Source: a virus (taxonomy: Duplodnaviria; Caudoviricetes). Taken from it: a DNA stretch of 60,001 nt. The DNA lies in IMG/VR virus record IMGVR_UViG_3300036859_000134, positions 1 through 60,001 of that record; one strand, given 5' to 3'. Under the pieces are notes generated by a model. It was not told where the DNA came from. It ran no database searches and saw only the letters and a program-made list of their open reading frames with translations. Position 1 is the first letter of the stretch, and each line of letters opens with the position of its first letter. The translations under genes were made by a program, and so were the position numbers. Below, piece by piece: positions 5,950 to 31,219 of the stretch.

Positions 5950-6317
5950 GCGGCGGCTTCTTCGAACTTCGTCTCGCTGAGGTAGAGCCGCAGCACCTCG
6001 TCGTTCGTTGACGCGTTGGGCGCGTTCTTTACGCCAGCATTGGCGGCGCGGATCAACTCCATGACGCCGGCGAGCGCCGCCTGCCCGATCCCGATGCTGG
6101 AGCGCCCCTGCTCGCGCTGCCACGCGAGCATTGCGGCCACGCTTTCGCGCGCCTCCTGCACCTTGGCAGGGTCTTCGCCGTCGAGCTCGCGCAGCGTGGC
6201 CCACAGCCACACCAGCGTAGGGGCGTGCTTGTCGCGGCCGAGCAGCACGAACAGTGGTTCGTCAGGCTGCGCGTTGGCATAGCAGTCGTAGGCTCCGGGG
6301 TCGTTCTTCGTTCCCAT
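5946..6317 (-). CDS. Conserved phage hypothetical protein
   Basis: MGTKNDPGAYDCYANAQPDEPLFVLLGRDKHAP; ATG overlaps the RT stop (TGATG). Confidence 0.75.
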   Translation of the reverse strand: MGTKNDPGAYDCYANAQPDEPLFVLLGRDKHAPTLVWLWATLRELDGEDPAKVQEARESVAAMLAWQREQGRSSIGIGQAALAGVMELIRAANAGVKNAPNASTNDEVLRLYLSETKFEEAAA

Positions 6318-7681
6318 CAGGAAGCTCCTTTGCGATAGGTCTTGGTGAGGTCCGACTTGACGCTGTGCCCGCGCTGCCGAATGGCATTCGCGAGCCGCGC
6401 CAGGTCGGCGTGGCCATGGGATGCCTGTCGAAACAGGCCCATGTAGCTGTTGGCCGACGCGAACACCTCGTCGGCCGGCATGTGCTCGATGCGATGCAGC
6501 GCCGAGCGCACCGTGCGCGGCCGCGTCACACGGCGCCTCGGCTTGATGACCTGGCCGACGAAGTCGATGCCACGGTCGGCCGCCTGCAGGACGGTCTTGC
6601 TCGGATTCAGGCGCGCGTGCAGGCGCTCGGGCAGGAACGACGAGACATCGCTCAGCGCCGCGTTGAGCCACTGTGCGCTCGGGTGCAGCAGCACGAAGTC
6701 ATCGACGTAGCGCACGTAGTGCGGCGCACGCAGCTTGTGCTTGACGTGCTGGTCGAGGTCGTTGAGAAGCACGTTCGCGAAGAACTGCGACGACAGGTTG
6801 CCGATCGGCAGCCCGGTGTCGTCGGGCGCGTTGAACAGGCTCTTGTGCGGCGGTACCAGCTTCAGTAACTCGCGCTCGCCGCGGACCACGACATCACCAC
6901 GCGGGTCGTGGAAGAGGATCGTCTCGGCCAGAGCCAGCCACCACGGCTCGTGCACCTTGCGCGCCAGCTGCGCGCGCAAGACGTGCTTGTCGATCGCGAC
7001 GAAGAAGTTCGCGAGGTCGCACTTCAGGTAGAACGCGCGCCGGCTCCAGTTCTCCGTGACGCTGCGCACTTGGCGTTCGAGGCGCTTCGCCGCGTACAGC
7101 GTGCCGCGCCCTGGGATGCATGCGCACGAGTCGGCCACGAACGATGCGTGGAAGCGCGGGGCGATGTGGTTGTAGAGCAGATGGTGGACCACGCGATCGC
7201 GGAAGTCCGCGGCCCACACCTCGCGCGGCTTCGGCCGGGTGATGACAAAGCAGATCGATCGGCCGGGGCCGTAGGCGCCACTGACCAGATCGTCGTGCAA
7301 GTCGAACAGGTTCTGCTCGACATTGGCCTCGAAAGCCAGCGCGCTTGCGCTGTTGCGCTTGGTGCGCCTGCAATCGAGGTAGGCCTGCACCAGCAGGGCG
7401 AACAGGCAGGAATCTGCGGACGGCTCGGGCGCAACCTTCGTAGCTCTTGTGGTTGTTGTTCTGGTTGCCGTTGTTGAAGTTGCAATTCCAGGCGTAGGAG
7501 GCGCACCTATCGCGCTATGTGGGCCGCCATCCCGAAGGCCTTGGCCGATCAGGACGGAAGCTGCACCGGACGCGGCCCGCGCGGGGGCGGCGGTATCCGT
7601 GGTGTGCATGGCGGTGGCCTTGTGGGCCAGCGGCGCGACCAGATTCACTTGGCGCACGGGCATGAGGGCCTTGACCGTCAT
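6317..7681 (-). CDS. DGR-class reverse transcriptase (start uncertain; RT domain starts about 7405)
   Basis: KPREVWAADFRDRVVHH, YLKCDLANFF, GLPIGNLSSQFFAN (DGR-type SQ motif), YVRYVDDFV, GIDFVG; adjacent to avd and TR. Confidence 0.95.
   Translation of the reverse strand: MTVKALMPVRQVNLVAPLAHKATAMHTTDTAAPARAASGAASVLIGQGLRDGGPHSAIGAPPTPGIATSTTATRTTTTRATKVAPEPSADSCLFALLVQAYLDCRRTKRNSASALAFEANVEQNLFDLHDDLVSGAYGPGRSICFVITRPKPREVWAADFRDRVVHHLLYNHIAPRFHASFVADSCACIPGRGTLYAAKRLERQVRSVTENWSRRAFYLKCDLANFFVAIDKHVLRAQLARKVHEPWWLALAETILFHDPRGDVVVRGERELLKLVPPHKSLFNAPDDTGLPIGNLSSQFFANVLLNDLDQHVKHKLRAPHYVRYVDDFVLLHPSAQWLNAALSDVSSFLPERLHARLNPSKTVLQAADRGIDFVGQVIKPRRRVTRPRTVRSALHRIEHMPADEVFASANSYMGLFRQASHGHADLARLANAIRQRGHSVKSDLTKTYRKGAS
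7413..7504 (-). repeat. DGR template repeat (TR)
   Basis: Minus strand GCC TCC TAC GCC TGG AAT TGC AAC TTC AAC AAC GGC AAC CAG AAC AAC AAC CAC AAG AGC TAC GAA GGT TGC GCC CGA GCC GTC CGC AGA. Eight AAY codons; differs from both VRs essentially only at adenines. Confidence 0.96.
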
Positions 7682-8040
7682 GCTGCAGGCGCCCTGTTCG
7701 CTGTCTTGAGCCAGCCGCCGGCTTGCTTGCCGATGCTACCTAGAAGCTCGATGGACTCGGCCCACAGCTTGGGAGCGAGGTATCGGCTGTCATGGCTGAC
7801 GCGCAGCAGGACCGTGACGGCTCGCTGCTTGGTCAGCAGCTCCTGGATGTGGCCCGCGCGCAGGTCGCGCTGCGTGGCGTTGGCCAGGGCCATCAGATCC
7901 AGCATGTCCACGCAGTGCTGGGTGATCTTCTCGCCCAGGATGCGCTTCATGCTGCGCGGCATCTGCTCCTGCACCTTCACAGCGAGCGAGAGCAGCCGGA
8001 CGCCGGTCCTGTAGATGGGCAGATCGGTGTGCAATGCCAT
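7678..8040 (-). CDS. avd: DGR accessory variability determinant (Avd-like four-helix-bundle protein)
   Basis: 120 aa, basic, helical: HTDLPIYR...MPRSMKRILGEKI...ANA...VLLRVSHD...IGKQAGGWLK; located between target genes and TR. Confidence 0.9.
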   Translation of the reverse strand: MALHTDLPIYRTGVRLLSLAVKVQEQMPRSMKRILGEKITQHCVDMLDLMALANATQRDLRAGHIQELLTKQRAVTVLLRVSHDSRYLAPKLWAESIELLGSIGKQAGGWLKTANRAPAA

Positions 8041-8084
8041 GGTGGTGGCGGGCTCAGTTTCAAAGGATCAAAGGACCGAAGGAA

Positions 8085-8543
8085 TCAAGCTCTGCGGACG
8101 GCTCGGGCGCAACCTTCGTAGCTCTTGGGGTTGATGTTCTGGTTGCCGTAGCCGAAGTAGCAATGCCAGGCGTAGGCGGCGTCGCTCTCGTATTCCTGGC
8201 TTGACCAGTGCCACGCCGGTTCCAGGTGAGGCTTGCAGTTCGCGAAGAGCAGCGCTTGCTCCTGACGGTTGGGCAGCGCGCCGCCAACGCTCTCGGCCCA
8301 CGCCTTCGCGTCGTTCCAGTTGAGCTTCGAGGCCGGCGTCTCGGCCATCAACACCAGGTGGTGCCGCACGTTGCCGTCGGCATCCAGCACGGTGCCGGCG
8401 TAGTGCTCACCGGCGCGCAGTTCGATGCTCGCCTCGGGAATGGTGAGCAGCGTGATCTCTTCGGCCTGTGCTTGCAGCTTCTCGATCATTGCGGCCAGTT
8501 CGGCCTGCTTGGCCTTCACGGCCTCCATCGTGATCGCGGTCAT
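8085..8543 (-). CDS. DGR target protein 1 (DUF1566/CLec-like, N-terminal coiled coil)
   Basis: AAGGAG RBS; 152 aa; W..AK.WA...GG.LP.R.EQALLFAN...WHWSS...AW.CYF..G.Q....KSYEGCARAVRR; VR1 at 3' end. Confidence 0.9.
   Translation of the reverse strand: MTAITMEAVKAKQAELAAMIEKLQAQAEEITLLTIPEASIELRAGEHYAGTVLDADGNVRHHLVLMAETPASKLNWNDAKAWAESVGGALPNRQEQALLFANCKPHLEPAWHWSSQEYESDAAYAWHCYFGYGNQNINPKSYEGCARAVRRA
8091..8181 (-). repeat. DGR variable repeat VR1
   Basis: Versus TR: 7 substitutions at TR adenines (AAT>CAT, AAC>TAC, AAC>GGC, AAC>TAC, AAC>ATC, CAC>CCC) and 1 non-A change at the 5' edge (TCC>GCC). Confidence 0.95.
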
Positions 8544-8575
8544 GGTGCTCCTTGCGGTATGAAAGGATTGAAGGA

Positions 8576-8986
8576 TCAAGCGGCCAGGTGAATCAAGCGG
8601 ACGGCTCGGGCGCAACCTTCGTAGCTCTTGTGGCGGTAGCTCTGGGCGCCGTTGCGGAAGTGGCAAAGCCAGGCGTAGGAGGCGCCGTACTCTTCGTTGG
8701 TCCAGTGCCAGTCGGGCTCGAACTGGGCCTTGGCGTTGGCATAGAGCAGGGCCGCTACAGGGCGCGACGGCAACTGCCCGCCGACCTCGTCGGCCCATGC
8801 CATGGACTGCTGCCAGGTCATGCGCTCCTGCGCCTTGTTGGGCAGCAGGATCACGGCGGCGTGCTGGCCGGTGGGCAGCGTCGTGACGCCGGCAAAGATG
8901 CCGCCTTCGAGCTCGGCGCCAAGCGCTGGGAGAGAGGCGAACGAGAGGGTCGCGGTTGCGGTGGATTCTTGAGCGATGGCTTCCAT
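8576..8986 (-). CDS. DGR target protein 2 (DUF1566/CLec-like)
   Basis: 136 aa; GGIFAG...W..SM.WA..VGGQLPSR..AALLYAN...WHWT...YAWLCHF..G.Q...KSYEGCARAVR; VR2 at 3' end. Confidence 0.9.
   Translation of the reverse strand: MEAIAQESTATATLSFASLPALGAELEGGIFAGVTTLPTGQHAAVILLPNKAQERMTWQQSMAWADEVGGQLPSRPVAALLYANAKAQFEPDWHWTNEEYGASYAWLCHFRNGAQSYRHKSYEGCARAVRLIHLAA
8597..8685 (-). repeat. DGR variable repeat VR2
   Basis: Versus TR: 11 substitutions, all at TR adenines (AAT>CTT, AAC>CAC, AAC>CGC, AAC>GCC, AAC>AGC, AAC>TAC, AAC>CGC). Confidence 0.95.
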
Positions 8987-25109: not shown

Positions 25110-25489
25110 AGCACAAGGTATCCGAGCTGGAAGGCGCGCAGCTGGCGCGTGCTGTTGCCATGGCCTGCGGCTATCGCGTTGAGCATGAGGTCGAATGGGA
25201 CGTATGGCTGCCACCGGAGGCCACGCCGGACGCTTCGCCATGCCACTCGTTCGGCGAACACGGCTGGCGCCCGGACAAGAACTGGGCGCACGGCGGCCCG
25301 ATCATCGAGCGCGAGCGGATCACGGTGAGCAGTCTGCTTGATCGATCCTTCCAAGCCTCTTGGCATCCATGGGAGACCGAATACGACCCATCGGACATGG
25401 GGGTGGAGCAAACCGGGCCAACCTATCTGATCGCCGCCATGCGCGCCTACGTCGCCAGCAAGCTGGGCGAGGAGGTCGACCTGCCATGA
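25106..25489 (+). CDS. NinX/DUF2591 family protein
   Basis: KVSELEG..L..AVA...W..GGPIIERE.I...GPT.LIAAMR.YVASKLG.EV. Confidence 0.85.
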   Translation: MKHKVSELEGAQLARAVAMACGYRVEHEVEWDVWLPPEATPDASPCHSFGEHGWRPDKNWAHGGPIIERERITVSSLLDRSFQASWHPWETEYDPSDMGVEQTGPTYLIAAMRAYVASKLGEEVDLP

Positions 25490-25659
25490 GTCTCCTGATG
25501 CTTGGCCCCTGGCTGGCCATCGCTGCGGTGCTCGTCTATCGCTGGTGGCTGCTACGGCAGATCGCGAAGCGGCAAGCGGTGACCACGCGCGCATACACCG
25601 ACGCGGCCGCGCGCGTGATCGAGTGGGAGCGCGCCGAGTACGAGGCGCGCCGGCCATGA
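25486..25659 (+). CDS. Small membrane protein
   Basis: N-terminal hydrophobic helix; ATGA overlaps. Confidence 0.5.
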   Translation: MSLLMLGPWLAIAAVLVYRWWLLRQIAKRQAVTTRAYTDAAARVIEWERAEYEARRP

Positions 25660-25886
25660 TGTACCTCTGCCTCGACCTGTGCCCACGCCCTGGCACCGAC
25701 ATGCTCACCTTCGACACGGTGGCCGAGGTCCTGGCCAACCCATCCGTGCAGACCGACGCATGGCTGCGCAACTGGCAGGTCTTCACCGATGCAGAGGCTG
25801 CGCAGCGCTACGCCGACGCCAGCCCGACCATCGTGGTGATGCCGCTGGTGCTGCAGGATGGACCGGTTCCGGGCTTTGCTCGGTAG
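25656..25886 (+). CDS. Hypothetical protein
   Basis: Coupled ORF, GC3-rich. Confidence 0.5.
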   Translation: MMYLCLDLCPRPGTDMLTFDTVAEVLANPSVQTDAWLRNWQVFTDAEAAQRYADASPTIVVMPLVLQDGPVPGFAR

Positions 25887-25916
25887 CCTCGCTCCGCCGT
25901 TGCATTCCAGAAATCC

Positions 25917-26045
25917 CATGTGATCGTCAGCCTCGTCGCGAAAGCGGCAGAGCGAGTCTCCTGATCAAGGAGTTGTCCCGGGGCCCAGCGCCCCGGTCTT
26001 TTCGGTGGATCGCTCGCCGCGCAATTCAACGAGGCACGATCCATG
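25917..26045 (+). promoter_or_regulatory. Multi-stem structured RNA leader upstream of terS
   Basis: Nested complementary segments (see findings) including a 7-bp GC hairpin followed by TCTTTTC. Confidence 0.6.
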
Positions 26046-26981
26046 TCCCAGTCGCGCAGGAGCAGCGGCAAGCCGGCCGGCAAGGCGCCGGCGAAGAAGA
26101 CACCGAAGCGGGGTAGCTCAACGGCAGAGCAGCGGGTTCATACCCCGAAGGCAGCTGGATCGACACCAGCCCCCGCTACCACCCCCAAGCCCACCGCCAA
26201 ACGCGCCCCCGCCAAGAAGGCGGCACCCCCGAAGCCTGCGCGCAAGAAGGCGCAGCCAACCGAGCCGGCGCAGCCGTCGGCCGCAGGCACCGCCCAGCGC
26301 CTGCTCGCAGCAGAGCCGGCACCAGACCCCGAGACGGGGCTGCACCCGCGCGTGCGCGCCTTCGCCGACGAGTACCTGCGCGACTTGAACGGGACGGCCG
26401 CCTATCTGCGCGTGCACCCGGACGCCAAGGTGAGCACCGCTGCGACCGAGTCGTGCCGCATCCTCAGAAACCCCAAGGTCCGGGAATATGTCGCAGCGCG
26501 CCGCGAGCAGATGGCGTTGGCGGTCGACTTCAGCAAAGAGGACGTGATCCGCGAGCTCGTGGCGCTTGTCCGGGCGGATCCCAACGAGCTCACGCAGATG
26601 CGGCAGATCTCGTGCGACGAGTGCTGGCCGCCGGAGAAGGACGAGGGCGGGGAAAAGCGGTTGCCCATGTGGACCGAGCCGAACCCTGAGTGCCCGCACT
26701 GCAACGGCAACGGCATCCCGCGGCCGTGGTTCGCCGACACCCGCAAGCTCTCGCCGGCCGCGCGCCGGCTGTTCAGCTCGGTGCACGTCACGCGCGACGG
26801 CATGCGCATCAACCTGCGTGACCAGGATGGCGCGCTGGACAAGCTCGCGAAAGTGTTCGGCGCCTACGAGGAAGACAACAAGCAGAAGCAGGGCACACTT
26901 GCCGAGGCCCTCAGCGAGTTGTTCGGCCAGCTGCACAGCGCCGGCGGATCCCGGCTGCCGATCGCGGGGCGCGGTAAATGA
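26043..26981 (+). CDS. terS: Terminase small subunit (H1-like basic N-terminus, Zn-finger insert)
   Basis: F.DEYL.DLNGT.AY...A.TES.RIL.NPKV..Y core; CDECW...CPHCNG.G insert; directly upstream of terL. Confidence 0.88.
   Translation: MSQSRRSSGKPAGKAPAKKTPKRGSSTAEQRVHTPKAAGSTPAPATTPKPTAKRAPAKKAAPPKPARKKAQPTEPAQPSAAGTAQRLLAAEPAPDPETGLHPRVRAFADEYLRDLNGTAAYLRVHPDAKVSTAATESCRILRNPKVREYVAARREQMALAVDFSKEDVIRELVALVRADPNELTQMRQISCDECWPPEKDEGGEKRLPMWTEPNPECPHCNGNGIPRPWFADTRKLSPAARRLFSSVHVTRDGMRINLRDQDGALDKLAKVFGAYEEDNKQKQGTLAEALSELFGQLHSAGGSRLPIAGRGK
26107..26181 (+). tRNA. tRNA-Met(CAT)-like gene, initiator-like, nested in terS
   Basis: Acceptor AGCGGGG/CCCCGCT + A + CCA; D arm GCTC/GAGC; anticodon stem (G)CGGG/CCCG(A) with loop TT-CAT-AC; T arm GCTGG/CCAGC with loop ATCGACA. 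Confidence 0.8.
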
Positions 26982-28519
26982 CCGAGGTCGCGGACATCGA
27001 GTCGGTCCTGGCCACGCTGGGCCCGCAGTTCAGCGACCCGCTCTGGCGCCTCGACAACCTGTATTGGATCGTCGACAAGGACGGCCGCACGGTCAAGTTC
27101 AAGCTCAACGACGAGCAGCGCGCGTTCGTCACGAACCTGTGGACGCGCAACCTGATCCTCAAGGCGCGGCAGCTCGGGTTCAGCACGCTGATGATGGTCC
27201 TCGAGCTCGACCAGGCGCTGTTCAACGAGAACTACAACGGCGTGGTGATCGCCGACACGCTGCCCAACGCCGGCAAGCTGTTCGCCAAGATCGAGTTCGC
27301 CTACAACCACCTGCCCGATGCGGTGAAGCAGGCGCTGCCCATCACCAGCATGGCCAGCCAGTCGAGCATCCGCTTCGCGCACGGCAGCACCATCGGCGTG
27401 GGCGTCAGCGCCCGCGGCGGCACGGTGAACCTGCTGCACGTCAGTGAGCTCGGCAAGATCGCGGCCAAGTTCCCGCAGCGCTCCAAGGAGATCATCACCG
27501 GCTCCTTCGAGGCCGTGGCCACCGACAGCGTGATCGTCGTCGAGTCGACGGCCGAGGGTGCCGCCGGCGACTTCTTCGACCTGTGCATGGCCGCGTTGCG
27601 CCGCCTGAAAGAAGGCGCGCCCGAGACGCCGCTCGACTTCCGCCTGCACTTCTTCCCGTGGTTCCGCTGCCGCGACTATCGGCTGAGCGCCGAGGACGCC
27701 GCAGTCACGCCGATCAGCGTCGACGAGCACAGGTACTTCGACAAGCTGCAGGTCGAGCTCGGCATCACCATCGACGCAGGCCAGCGCGCGTGGTACGTGA
27801 AGAAGAAGGAGGTGCTCAAGCGCGAGATGAAGCGCGAGTACCCCTCGACGCCGGAGGAGGCCTTCGAGGTCGCCACCGAGGGCGCGGTGTACGGCCTCGA
27901 GATGACGTACCTGCGCGAGAAAGGCCGCGTCACCAGCGTGCAGCTCGACCCGGCGCACAAGGTCAACACCTTCTGGGACCTGGGCAAGCGCGACAAGACC
28001 GCCATCTGGCTGCACCAGTACATCGGCGTGCAGCACCGGTGGATCAAGTACTTCGAGGACAGCAACCGCGACCTGCGCTACTACTGGACGGAGCTGGAAG
28101 CGTTTCGCGTGGAACACGGCTTCATGTGGGGCAAGCACTTCCTGCCGCACGACGCCGCGACCGAGATCCTCGGCGAGTCGATCACCACGCACGAGCAGAC
28201 CCTGATCAAGCTCGGCATGCGCAACACCGTGATCGTGCCGCGAGTGTCCGACCTGTCAGTGGGCATCGACAAGACCCGCGAGGTCCTGGTGGGCAACCAC
28301 TGGTTCGACCGCATCGCGTGCGCGCAGGGCATCAAGTGCCTCGACGGCTACCAGTACCAGTGGAACGACAAGCTCGGCGTGTGGAGCAGCGATCCGCTGC
28401 ACAACTGGGCGTCGCACGGCGCTGACGCCTGGCGGCAGTTCGCGCAGGGCTGGCGCGAAGCCACCAACGACGAGTCGTTCGAGAAGTTCAAGAGGAGAGA
28501 TCGATCATGGAGACGCTGA
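26978..28519 (+). CDS. terL: Terminase large subunit
   Basis: ILKARQLGFST (Walker A), LLHVSE (Walker B), VESTAEG, WDLG..D, PHD, SHGADA nuclease motifs. Confidence 0.95.
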   Translation: MTEVADIESVLATLGPQFSDPLWRLDNLYWIVDKDGRTVKFKLNDEQRAFVTNLWTRNLILKARQLGFSTLMMVLELDQALFNENYNGVVIADTLPNAGKLFAKIEFAYNHLPDAVKQALPITSMASQSSIRFAHGSTIGVGVSARGGTVNLLHVSELGKIAAKFPQRSKEIITGSFEAVATDSVIVVESTAEGAAGDFFDLCMAALRRLKEGAPETPLDFRLHFFPWFRCRDYRLSAEDAAVTPISVDEHRYFDKLQVELGITIDAGQRAWYVKKKEVLKREMKREYPSTPEEAFEVATEGAVYGLEMTYLREKGRVTSVQLDPAHKVNTFWDLGKRDKTAIWLHQYIGVQHRWIKYFEDSNRDLRYYWTELEAFRVEHGFMWGKHFLPHDAATEILGESITTHEQTLIKLGMRNTVIVPRVSDLSVGIDKTREVLVGNHWFDRIACAQGIKCLDGYQYQWNDKLGVWSSDPLHNWASHGADAWRQFAQGWREATNDESFEKFKRRDRSWRR

Positions 28520-29062: not shown

Positions 29063-31219
29063 ATGCCCGACATCATCGTCCCCAAGCGCACCGACCAGCT
29101 GGACGCCACGGAGCGGCACGACAGGCGCATCGGATGGTTCGTGGCCGAGGCGTCGCGCCAGGCGTCCACGCGCGCCGTCATGGCGAAGTGCGAGCGCTAC
29201 TACGACAGCGAGCAGCACGACCCGCAGGAGGCGCAGGACATCCGCGAGCGCGGGCAGAACCCGGTGACGATCAACGAGATCGCCCCGTCGATCGACTGGC
29301 TGATCGGTACCGAGCGCCGGACCCGGGTGGACTTCAAGGTGCAGCCGCGCGAGTCGCTGGATCCGGACTCGACGAAGGACGCCGAGAACAAGACCAAGCT
29401 GCTGAAGTGGCTCGACGACACCAACGGCGGCGGCTTCGAGCGCAGCAACGCGTGGGACGACGCGGTGAAGGCGGGACTGGGCTGGATCGAGGTCGGCGTG
29501 CGGGGTGATCTGTCCGACGAGCCGATCTACAAGCGCTCCGAAAGCTGGCGTGCCATGCTCCACGACAGCATGGGCACGCGCAAGGACACGCGCGACTGGC
29601 GCTACACCTTCCGGCTGAAGATGGTCGACCTCGACATCGCGCTGGCCTACTTCCCGAGCAAGGAGAAGGAACTGCTCAAGGTCCGCCAGCGCGGCAACGA
29701 CCTGCAGACCTTCTCGACCTGGTGGATGGGCGCCGGCAACCTGATGGACCTGGGCCTGCTCGAGGCGGCCAGCGCGCTCGACCAGAACGCCATGCCGCTG
29801 GACCTGTTCAACCCGCGCGACCGCGTGCTGCTGGTCGAGTGCTGGAACTATGACCCGTTCACCGTGAAACAGCGGCCGAACTCGTCGCTCTACGACCGCG
29901 TGCAGCTGCGCATGCGCATGTCGATCATGACGGAGTTCGACACCCTCATCGAGGACTGGAGCCCGTACAAGCACAACCGATTCCACTTCATCCCGCTCTG
30001 GGGCTACCGCAACAAGACCACGGGCATGCCCTATAGCCCGATCAAGCGGATGCTCGACAAGCAGGACGCGGTCAACCACGCCTACACCAAGGCACTGTTC
30101 GAGATCAGCGTCAACCAGATCATCATGGAGGCCGACGCGATCGACAACGAGGCGATGACGATCGAGGAGGTGCAGGAAGAGATCTCCGACCCGGCCGGCG
30201 TCGCGGTGCTCGCCAAGGGCGCACTGACGAACAAGAAGTTCCAGACGCGCCGCGGCATCGAGAACGCGCAGGCGCAGCTGCAGCTGGCCGATCGGATGAT
30301 CACCGCCATGCAGGGCGAAAGCTCTGTCACCGGCGAGAACCGCGGCCTGGACACCAACGCCATCAGCGGCAAGGCCATCGGCCTGAAGCAGGACCAGGGC
30401 GGCGTGCTGTCGGCCGAGCTGTTCGACAACGCGCTGCTCGCCCGCAAGCAGGAAGGCGAGATCGAACTGTCGCTGGTCGAGCAGTACCTCGTGAAGCCCA
30501 TGGCGGTGCCCATCGCGGGCGAGCGCGGGCAGTACGAGATGCTCGAGCTCAACCAGATGCTCGACGACGGCACGGTGCTGAACGACATCACGGCCCGCTC
30601 GGCGCGCTTCGTTGTCGACGAGCAGCCGTGGCGCGCGACGCTCGGCCAGGCGATGTTCGAGTCGCTCATCGAACTGATGGGCAAGCTGGCACCGGTGGCG
30701 CCGCAGGTGGTGACCGCGATCCTCGACCTCGTGTTCGAGTACGCGGACATGCCGAACAAGCAGAGCATGCTGCAGCGCATCCGCGCCGTGACCGGCCAGC
30801 CGGGCCCGGACAACGAGATGACGCCCGAGCAGAAGCAGGCGCAGGACCAGGCCAACGCGGTCAAGGAAGCGCAGTTCCGGGCGCAGATGGCCAAGCTGGC
30901 GGCCGACATTCACGAGGCATCGGCGCGCGGCGACAAGCTGGACGCCGAGTCGGTAGCCAAGCGGCTGGAGGCGCTCTACATGGCCGCCCAGGGCGCCCAG
31001 GTGATCGCGATGAATCCGACGATCGCCCCGATGGTGGACGAGCTCGCCAAGTCGGCCGGCTTCCAGGACCAGAACGCGGCGCCCATCGCGCCGGAGCCCG
31101 GAGCCGTGCAGCCGGGCGCAGCCATCCCGCCGGCGCAGCAGGCCGACGGCGCACTCGTCGGTCACGAGACCGGCATTCGCACCCCAGGCGCCGACGGCGT
31201 CATCAACCCCCAGGAGTGA
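29063..31219 (+). CDS. Portal protein (P22-like)
   Basis: YYD.EQ......RGQ.P.TINEI...IDW.IGTE; G.GW.EV; SPY....F..IP.WGY; D.QD..N; A.SG.AI..KQ.QG; Q/A-rich barrel. Confidence 0.9.
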   Translation: MPDIIVPKRTDQLDATERHDRRIGWFVAEASRQASTRAVMAKCERYYDSEQHDPQEAQDIRERGQNPVTINEIAPSIDWLIGTERRTRVDFKVQPRESLDPDSTKDAENKTKLLKWLDDTNGGGFERSNAWDDAVKAGLGWIEVGVRGDLSDEPIYKRSESWRAMLHDSMGTRKDTRDWRYTFRLKMVDLDIALAYFPSKEKELLKVRQRGNDLQTFSTWWMGAGNLMDLGLLEAASALDQNAMPLDLFNPRDRVLLVECWNYDPFTVKQRPNSSLYDRVQLRMRMSIMTEFDTLIEDWSPYKHNRFHFIPLWGYRNKTTGMPYSPIKRMLDKQDAVNHAYTKALFEISVNQIIMEADAIDNEAMTIEEVQEEISDPAGVAVLAKGALTNKKFQTRRGIENAQAQLQLADRMITAMQGESSVTGENRGLDTNAISGKAIGLKQDQGGVLSAELFDNALLARKQEGEIELSLVEQYLVKPMAVPIAGERGQYEMLELNQMLDDGTVLNDITARSARFVVDEQPWRATLGQAMFESLIELMGKLAPVAPQVVTAILDLVFEYADMPNKQSMLQRIRAVTGQPGPDNEMTPEQKQAQDQANAVKEAQFRAQMAKLAADIHEASARGDKLDAESVAKRLEALYMAAQGAQVIAMNPTIAPMVDELAKSAGFQDQNAAPIAPEPGAVQPGAAIPPAQQADGALVGHETGIRTPGADGVINPQE

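Follow-up and report, generated by a model that had tools for sequence, protein, structure and literature searches.

Can one stretch of phage DNA be a tRNA gene and, on the same strand and in the same frame, a run of codons in a protein-coding gene? The question is posed by a stretch of 60,001 nucleotides (nt), here called the window, which is taken from an IMG/VR virus record (IMGVR_UViG_3300036859_000134, positions 1 to 60,001) and represents a soil phage genome estimated to be 89% complete. Within it a tRNA-Met gene lies inside the open reading frame (ORF) of terS, the gene for the small terminase subunit TerS. We propose that positions 26107-26181 are probably both an intact, initiator-derived tRNA-Met gene and codons 22-47 of terS, and that the transcript is either translated through the tRNA or processed. 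The two elements are as follows.

26107-26181, plus strand: tRNA-Met(CAT), initiator-type, 75 nt with CCA, also codons 22-47 of terS (ARAGORN, Rfam, folds, alignments, covariation).
26043-26981, plus strand: terS, full open frame of 312 amino acids (aa) (Pfam Terminase_2, PF03592, 71.1 bits over residues 103-280 against a gathering score of 26.1; phrog_51, E 1.5e-30 over residues 52-284).

Is the tRNA real? ARAGORN calls tRNA-Met(cat) at 26107-26181 on the plus strand as the sole tRNA within the 60-kb window, and the Rfam model RF00005 matches 26107-26178 over its full length (1-71 of 71) with 57.4 bits against a gathering score of 29 (E 8.7e-10). Folded alone, the 75 nt form a cloverleaf of -30.5 kcal/mol (z -2.37), which is also present within 231 nt of mRNA context in both the minimum free energy and the centroid structures. 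With gene finder, covariance model and folding in agreement, the stretch is a real tRNA gene. The first-pass annotation of this DNA, which had described a full 75-nt tRNA-Met(CAT) with an encoded CCA here and had named ARAGORN as a check, is thereby upheld. The molecule begins and ends with a paired A1:T72, followed by the discriminator A73 and the encoded CCA. Its D stem is GCTC/GAGC, its anticodon stem GCGGG/CCCGA with three G:C pairs adjoining the loop TTCATAC (U32/C38), and its T stem GCTGG/CCAGC with the T-loop ATCGACA (A54/A60); the stem pairs next to the anticodon loop, A1-U72 and both loops read exactly as that annotation had them. But for one top pair, the four stems are complete. The conserved tertiary nucleotides of tRNAs are U8, A14, G18-G19, U33, G53, T54, U55, C56, A58 and C61, and the window copy has every one of them save that position 54 is A, not T.

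The tRNA starts 64 nt after ATG 26043 and is read without a stop as TerS residues 22-47 (KRGSSTAEQRVHTPKAAGSTPAPAT), the anticodon CAT serving as a His codon. The frame 26043-26981 is open throughout, as had been noticed from the sequence when the 75-nt element was first seen there. Residues 1-100 as read include the peptides GSSTAEQR, VHTPK and AAGSTPAPATTPKPTAK. The gene stands directly ahead of terL and the portal gene (29063-31219, phrog_156, after terL), as expected for a small terminase. Three parts of the protein can be told apart.

26043-26279, plus strand: disordered Lys/Ala/Pro-rich N-terminal tail, residues 1-79, holding the tRNA (AlphaFold2, GC content at the third codon position (GC3), Lys codons).
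26280-26348, plus strand: conserved peptide segment, a predicted helix at residues 80-89 plus a LLAAxPxxDP...P motif, upstream of the gene caller's start (conserved in homologs, synonymous variation in six of the seven loci with DNA).
26349-26882, plus strand: Terminase_2 core domain, residues 103-280 (Pfam; folded in the AlphaFold2 model).

In that model, residues 1-79, including the tRNA-coded 22-47, have a predicted local distance difference test (pLDDT) score of 44-56 and no secondary structure; the ten-residue block of the helix at 80-89 has a mean pLDDT of 75, and residues 101-270 reach 79-97. A lysine-rich tail that is disordered, as predicted here, can tolerate almost any Gly/Ser/Ala/Pro-rich peptide, and it may take part in DNA recognition by TerS.

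Does the arrangement recur? About 105 related loci were scanned with ARAGORN (L numbers denote loci, P numbers proteins). Wherever a tRNA occurs at most 400 nt upstream of a TerS core, the ORF contains it in frame and runs without a stop from an ATG further upstream to the core; this is so in 7/7 loci. Their tRNAs are these.

The window: Met, 75 nt.
L009: Met, 75 nt.
L013: Met, 78 nt.
L089: Met, 78 nt.
L092: Met, 78 nt, with a weak second copy (32.5 bits).
L096: Ile-GAT, 75 nt.
L090: odd tRNA-like element, 94 nt.

Rfam supports the embedded tRNAs of all seven at 48-70 bits. None of the seven in-frame readings of these stretches holds a stop, as against 13 of the 14 off-frames with at least one, and on this comparison the openness is more than chance. 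Two small profiles, built from the translated DNA-verified tRNAs, were then used on protein homologs. Segments resembling a translated tRNA are found in 25 of 83 homologs, six of which have two and one of which has three. They are also found in 12 of 150 representatives of 50% clusters (8 at i-E <1e-5), all of them within the 40 best hits, so that the trait characterises one clade within the TerS subfamily. Met and Ile(GAT) are the kinds embedded in the loci with DNA; further kinds are not nameable from protein sequence. Comparison of terS homologs with and without the insert, as the first-pass annotation had suggested, gives in-frame tRNAs in the seven loci and Lys/Ala/Pro-rich tails without any tRNA in L091, L100 and L014.

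Two of the loci are almost alike outside the tRNA. In L089 (2417-2657) and L090 (2420-2675) the first nine terS codons are identical and the upstream DNA is near-identical, yet the in-frame tRNA differs between them, and the indels beside it are of whole codons; the contrast points to cassette exchange inside the ORF. The L090 element (2510-2603, also in P0011 and P0013) is 94 nt long, has intact acceptor, D and T arms and a 25-nt loop on its anticodon stem, and continues to be read in the terS frame; either decay of a tRNA or an insertion into one would account for it. L005 and L006 (3011-3176) have a tRNA-Met and a tRNA-Ile(GAT) separated by 9 nt, with no long ORF around them. In P0024 and P0029 the TerS tail holds in-frame peptides in the same Met-then-Ile order, which suggests that a tRNA cassette moved as a unit. 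Scans of viral and genome contigs for loci by single proteins returned no close relatives; alignment-based scans recovered loci. Among 401 genomes of the order to which a Roseateles metagenome-assembled genome belongs, five TerS matches at E <=1e-20 were found, none with a tRNA in its locus. Two sets of candidates were set aside. Tail motifs of the AAPHGPSEG type (L014, L100) were considered as tRNA remnants, and L014, L091 and L100 gave no Rfam tRNA match at E <=1. Long ORFs over non-embedded tRNAs in L062 and L029 have GC3 of 0.68 and 0.64 and an Arg-rich junk translation, and are chance.

Are both the fold and the frame kept? Among the five embedded Met copies (window, L009, L013, L089, L092), 104/105 pair cells are standard (99.0%) and 8/21 pairs are changed on both sides. 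None of 500 shuffles reached those pairing values, and controls in which partners were slid paired at 44-50%. The only unpaired cell is G27/A43 of the window. A wider set of sixteen tRNA sequences is 94.9% paired, with 16 pairs changed on both sides. The compensatory changes among embedded copies argue that selection has acted on the fold since the tRNAs became embedded. In length the five differ by nothing but a 3-nt indel in the D-loop, as expected if the frame must be kept as well. The frame that begins at tRNA base 2 holds U8-A9-G10, which is TAG, and is closed in 22 of 23 tRNAs examined. Six embedded copies have a normal anticodon arm, and in these the anticodon is at base 33 or 36, which places its triplet in frame; it is at base 35 in 6/8 of the free-standing relatives aligned. 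Closure of all three frames was seen in 4 of 16 non-embedded tRNAs checked, all of them canonical initiator copies. Free-standing phage tRNA-Met copies lie between genes or in stop-closed frames, whereas embedded copies combine A1:U72 with a D-loop whose length leaves the frame open. As judged from these alignments, one sequence is under a dual constraint of tRNA fold and codons, and the arrangement is recurrent.

What speaks against such a reading? Several observations do, and they concern the start of translation as well as the state of the tRNA. The source gene caller began TerS at GTG 26352 (P0001, 209 aa), two homologs of 69-70% identity (P0008, P0014) are called from an ATG at the equivalent position, and the Pfam Terminase_2 match begins at about the same place, residue 103; since these coincide, a short TerS form is possible. 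High GC yields long chance open frames, and frame +1 of the window tail is open too. DNA is at hand for the seven embedded loci, the other homologs being known as protein calls only, and no RNA sequencing runs holding the window sequence were found, which bears on tRNA release and read-through alike. In Rfam score the window tRNA ranks last among the five embedded Met copies (57.4 vs 59-70 bits), and G27/A43, the top pair of its anticodon stem, is mismatched; given these and A54 for T54, it could be decaying. As the sequence of L090 indicates, embedded copies do degrade while the frame persists.

If TerS instead started at GTG 26352 or another internal codon, the tRNA would sit in an untranslated 5' leader and the upstream ORF would be a by-product of 67% GC. 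The start calls, the Pfam boundary and the stop-free frame +1 just described are what such a start would explain, and we nevertheless consider it unlikely. The two candidate start sites differ in their surroundings.

26031-26034, plus strand: Shine-Dalgarno GAGG, 8 nt before ATG 26043 (L009 has GAGG at similar spacing).
26352-26354, plus strand: in-frame GTG, the gene caller's start and a possible internal start (P0001 begins VRAFADEYLR; P0008 and P0014 begin with Met there).

By inspection of the sequence, none of GGAG, GAGG and AGGA occurs within 13 nt before GTG 26352. Base composition also argues for a translated tail. GC at codon positions 1/2/3 is 0.70/0.69/0.88 in the tail without the tRNA and 0.66/0.46/0.90 in the core, against 0.65/0.60/0.63 in the intergenic 25887-26042; Lys codons AAG:AAA are used 12:1 in the tail, vs 27:2 in terL. 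Chance ORFs over other tRNAs lack the GC3 bias. The Lys/Ala/Pro-rich flanks of the tRNA, taken for coding sequence from the outset, do look like genuine coding sequence. The openness of 7/7 loci in frame, set against the stops in the off-frames, counts in the same direction. The N-terminus MSQSRRSSGK of the window protein follows a pattern, M..S.RRSSGK, common to P0003, P0005, P0006 and P0009. Homologs at 44-69% identity are mostly 280-367 aa long and have an N-terminal Met, a Lys/Ala/Pro-rich tail and then a ..LLAAxPxxDP..(L/M)TP.. segment, which sits upstream of the 26352 position. Across the seven loci with DNA this segment is conserved with synonymous changes (Leu CTG/CTC/CTT/TTG/CTA, Asp GAC/GAT, Pro CCG/CCC/CCA). 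No in-frame ATG, GTG or TTG lies between the last tRNA and the LLAAxPxxDP motif in the window, L089 or L092, and in the window none follows the tRNA before GTG 26352, which extends to GTG and TTG the earlier remark that no ATG separates the tRNA from the TerS core. The residue at the 26352-equivalent position is V, M or L in the closest clade and Leu, Gln, His or Glu in other homologs; therefore no conserved start exists there. Relatives carry globular helix-turn-helix (HTH) modules fused in the same frame at the position of the tail (L010, L011, L012, L093, L097-L099, L101, L107), which makes the DNA ahead of the core coding sequence in the TerS family. From these comparisons the N-terminal extension is the rule in this family. 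An initiation of TerS at GTG 26352 had been named at the outset as the finding that would overturn translation of the tRNA. The gene caller did choose that codon, but the comparative evidence argues for ATG 26043 and favours translation from there through the tRNA.

Two side observations concern this part of the gene. Frame +1 is stop-free over 26005-26388 (127 aa, Arg-rich), spanning tail and tRNA, and looks like the usual off-frame of high-GC coding DNA. In L010, L011, L012, L093-L095, L097-L099, L101, L102 and L107 the N-terminal 100-140 codons are swapped. The N-terminal module in the TerS subfamily is a Lys/Ala/Pro tail with or without tRNAs, a second Terminase_2-like HTH, or an HTH of another sort (TDWKAVERDY...), and a LLAxxxxxDP linker is conserved after every module type.

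Translation through the tRNA from ATG 26043 leaves a further question: is the tRNA still functional, or is it a relic without working tRNA output that now serves only to encode part of the tail? The low score, A54 and G27/A43 would suit a relic, as would the degenerate embedded tRNA still in frame in L090 (with P0011 and P0013) and the weak second copy of L092. We think a relic quite improbable. The stems and conserved tertiary nucleotides of the window copy are in place but for one top pair and position 54, its score lies 28 bits over the Rfam threshold, and the compensatory changes among embedded copies show selection on the fold. A54 occurs in the free-standing L054 and L062 as well, and is therefore a recurring variant rather than random decay.

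What kind of tRNA is it? E. coli K-12 metZ (initiator), metT (elongator) and ileX were aligned with the phage copies (alignment A2). The window tRNA is 68% identical to metZ, 53% to metT and 59% to ileX; the embedded tRNAs are 68-82% identical to metZ and 53-61% to metT and ileX. With the window tRNA as query, blastn found nothing at E 0.01 among all complete E. coli genomes. The three G:C pairs at the foot of the anticodon stem (G29-G31 with C39-C41) occur in the window, L013, L089 and L092, and L009 has G:C, G:C, C:G there. Compared with the bacterial initiator tRNA-fMet (E. coli metZ/W/V), the acceptor stem matches save for position 1 and the GGG/CCC anticodon stem is the same, but the embedded copies have A1:U72 and C11:G24, and the window copy also U32/C38 and A54/A60. 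Bacterial initiators are distinguished by the lack of a Watson-Crick pair at 1:72; A1:U72 is paired in all five embedded Met copies, while C1/A72 is found in metZ and six free-standing phage copies (L005, L034, L043, L051, L052, L062). The remaining free-standing copies have U1/U72 (Bordetella phage PHB09) and A1/A72 (L054). A11:U24 in the D stem is a further feature of bacterial initiators, seen in metZ, and the window D stem has C11:G24 in its place. Of 13 phage initiator-like copies, seven have the TTCATAC loop with U32/C38 (L005, L054, L062, PHB09, window, L089, L092) and three have A54 (window, L054, L062).

A1:U72, A54 and A60 together are features of initiators of the eukaryotic and archaeal type. 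The window copy has all three; the other four embedded Met copies have T54, and A54 with A60 is confined to the window among the five. Earlier inspection had likened the tRNA to eukaryotic initiators. The traits are indeed present, but by descent the closest match is the bacterial initiator, and as far as the alignment tells, the eukaryote-like traits are a resemblance on a bacterial-initiator backbone and not shared descent. CAU and A73 are the main identity elements for methionyl-tRNA synthetase, and a 1:72 base pair weakens formylation and favours binding of EF-Tu. With 1:72 paired, the tRNA may act as an initiator or as an elongator.

A free-standing copy of the same tRNA lineage is known from another phage. 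Bordetella phage vB_BbrS_PHB09 (MN103401, 15176-15249, unannotated) has a tRNA-Met that is 78% identical to the window copy and has the same TTCATAC loop. This copy (L001 3000-3074) adjoins a convergently transcribed operon of a brnT-family toxin; its end is 4 nt short of the 3' end of brnT's neighbour, a hypothetical gene. In related F116-like contigs, an initiator tRNA-Met lies 0.7-2.2 kb upstream of terS.

How could a single RNA yield both products? We propose that a late transcript starting with terS would be used in two ways. When ribosomes load at ATG 26043, they would translate through the melted tRNA to give full-length TerS, and translation of terL may be coupled to that of terS via the overlap of the two genes.

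26978-28519, plus strand: terL, whose ATG overlaps the terS stop codon (ATGA) (phrog_2, phrog_5989, terminase large subunit).

When the cloverleaf is folded, or the mRNA is under degradation, RNase P would cut at 26106/26107 and trimming of the 3' end would leave a stable tRNA; the encoded CCA suggests trimming of the bacterial type. The cut would part the Shine-Dalgarno sequence, the AUG and 21 codons from the mRNA of the TerS core, and therefore the tRNA would be produced at the expense of TerS translation, or after it as the mRNA decays. Processed RNA may also yield a tail-less TerS from GTG 26352. Charging of the tRNA with Met would proceed via its CAU anticodon and A73; with its paired A1:U72 and GGG/CCC anticodon stem, the tRNA may act as a phage-supplied, initiator-like Met tRNA.

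Must the cloverleaf decode at all? It might instead be a cis-acting target for RNase P that sets the level of terS-terL mRNA or brings about a tail-less TerS. Its location in the leading gene of the packaging operon, 64 nt from the start codon, would fit such a role, as would the ATGA overlap of terS and terL and the finding that members of the closest clade have GTG, ATG or a Leu codon at the place of 26352. However, anticodon CAT, loop geometry, discriminator and encoded CCA are all conserved, none of which a cleavage signal would need, and relatives embed different tRNA species (Met, Ile-GAT, others). We judge a purely cis-acting element very improbable. Many temperate phages integrate into tRNA genes, and the tRNA could on that ground be an attachment-site remnant, a copy of a host tRNA used for integration. 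This explanation seems hardly credible here: the tyrosine integrase family PF00589 has 0 matches in the window while 14/14 control genomes matched, the copy is full length, divergent and placed in the packaging module, and relatives hold up to three different tRNAs at the same place.

Beyond an intact tRNA gene that doubles as terS codons, one can entertain, as a doubtful but possible extension, that the nested tRNAs form a built-in switch, in which the balance of RNase P and read-through sets the dosage of TerS (and, via ATGA, of TerL) while yielding a defence-resistant Met tRNA. If so, processed transcripts might still give tail-less TerS from an internal GTG or ATG, and decayed copies of the L090 type would be tRNA genes becoming new protein-coding sequence. 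In a bolder variant the tRNA would be precisely excised and the mRNA religated, removal of a multiple of three keeping the frame. Six of the seven embedded tRNAs are 75 or 78 nt long including CCA, both multiples of three, and that of L090 is 94 nt. These lengths were considered as evidence for excision and religation and rejected as not significant, the five Met copies not being independent and L090 departing from the rule. As to resistance, PMC10264068 gives precedent among phage tRNAs for anticodon-loop variation as an escape from tRNA-cleaving defence nucleases, and describes phages as generally avoiding tRNA-fMet genes where VapC targets tRNA-fMet; enterobacterial VapC cleaves initiator tRNA, according to PMC5175351. 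The TTCATAC loop of the window tRNA may, as first suggested, be an escape from VapC-type nucleases that cut the anticodon loop.

How does this compare with known systems? Joint transcripts of tRNAs and protein genes are familiar from the E. coli thrU-tyrU-glyT-thrT-tufB operon, in which RNase P and other RNases separate the parts. The window is alike in that tRNA and protein gene would share a transcript, but the known tRNAs lie upstream and are untranslated, whereas this one follows the start codon in frame and its bases would be codons. Viral overprinted genes likewise place one DNA stretch under two sets of constraints and pack more into the genome. The known overlaps are of protein on protein in different frames; in the window a structured RNA gene occupies the same strand and frame. 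The Terminase_2 TerS proteins of F116, Atpa001, BcepIL02 and JC1 share the core domain and adjacency to terL at 27-34% identity, but the matches to cultured-phage TerS (F116-like, Bcep22-like) span query residues 76-310 only, and 0 of 88 matching cultured-phage records cover the tail or its tRNA-coded part. Searches of full article texts for a precedent turned up no account of a phage protein-coding gene with an in-frame tRNA gene inside it; PMC9144972 and PMC2194725 proved unrelated.

Annotation practice treats tRNA and protein-coding genes as mutually exclusive on a strand, and the source pipeline truncated TerS accordingly (P0001); gene callers and tRNA masks will mis-annotate such TerS proteins. 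In-frame tRNAs in a terS clade would be a clear natural case of tRNA-fold and codon constraints acting on one sequence. The system bears on the competition of ribosome and RNase P for one RNA, on the delivery of initiator-like tRNAs by phages late in infection, and on whether tRNA genes seed new protein sequence.

A few further observations concern the surroundings of the locus and the rest of the window. One more feature precedes terS.

25978-26006, plus strand: GC hairpin followed by a T tract, resembling a terminator and lying 37 nt ahead of the terS ATG (7-bp all-GC stem 25978-25996, then TCTTTTCGGT).

It is the only such site in 25400-26600, where shuffles gave a mean of 0.7. Four soil-metagenome DNA runs were compared with the window; X2 and X3 contain identical pieces of it, and the four runs showed no variants or joints and otherwise unrelated short matches only. 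Elsewhere, at 6317-8693 on the minus strand, the window carries a diversity-generating retroelement. It comprises a reverse transcriptase ORF (6317-7681; phrog_1423, E 7.5e-112), an RT-15 RNA (RF03018) at 7503-7694 with 162 bits, a repeat resembling a template (7413-7512) and two variable copies, 8091-8190 (88%) and 8594-8693 (80%), whose differences from the template fall mostly at T on the plus strand, that is, at A on the coding strand.

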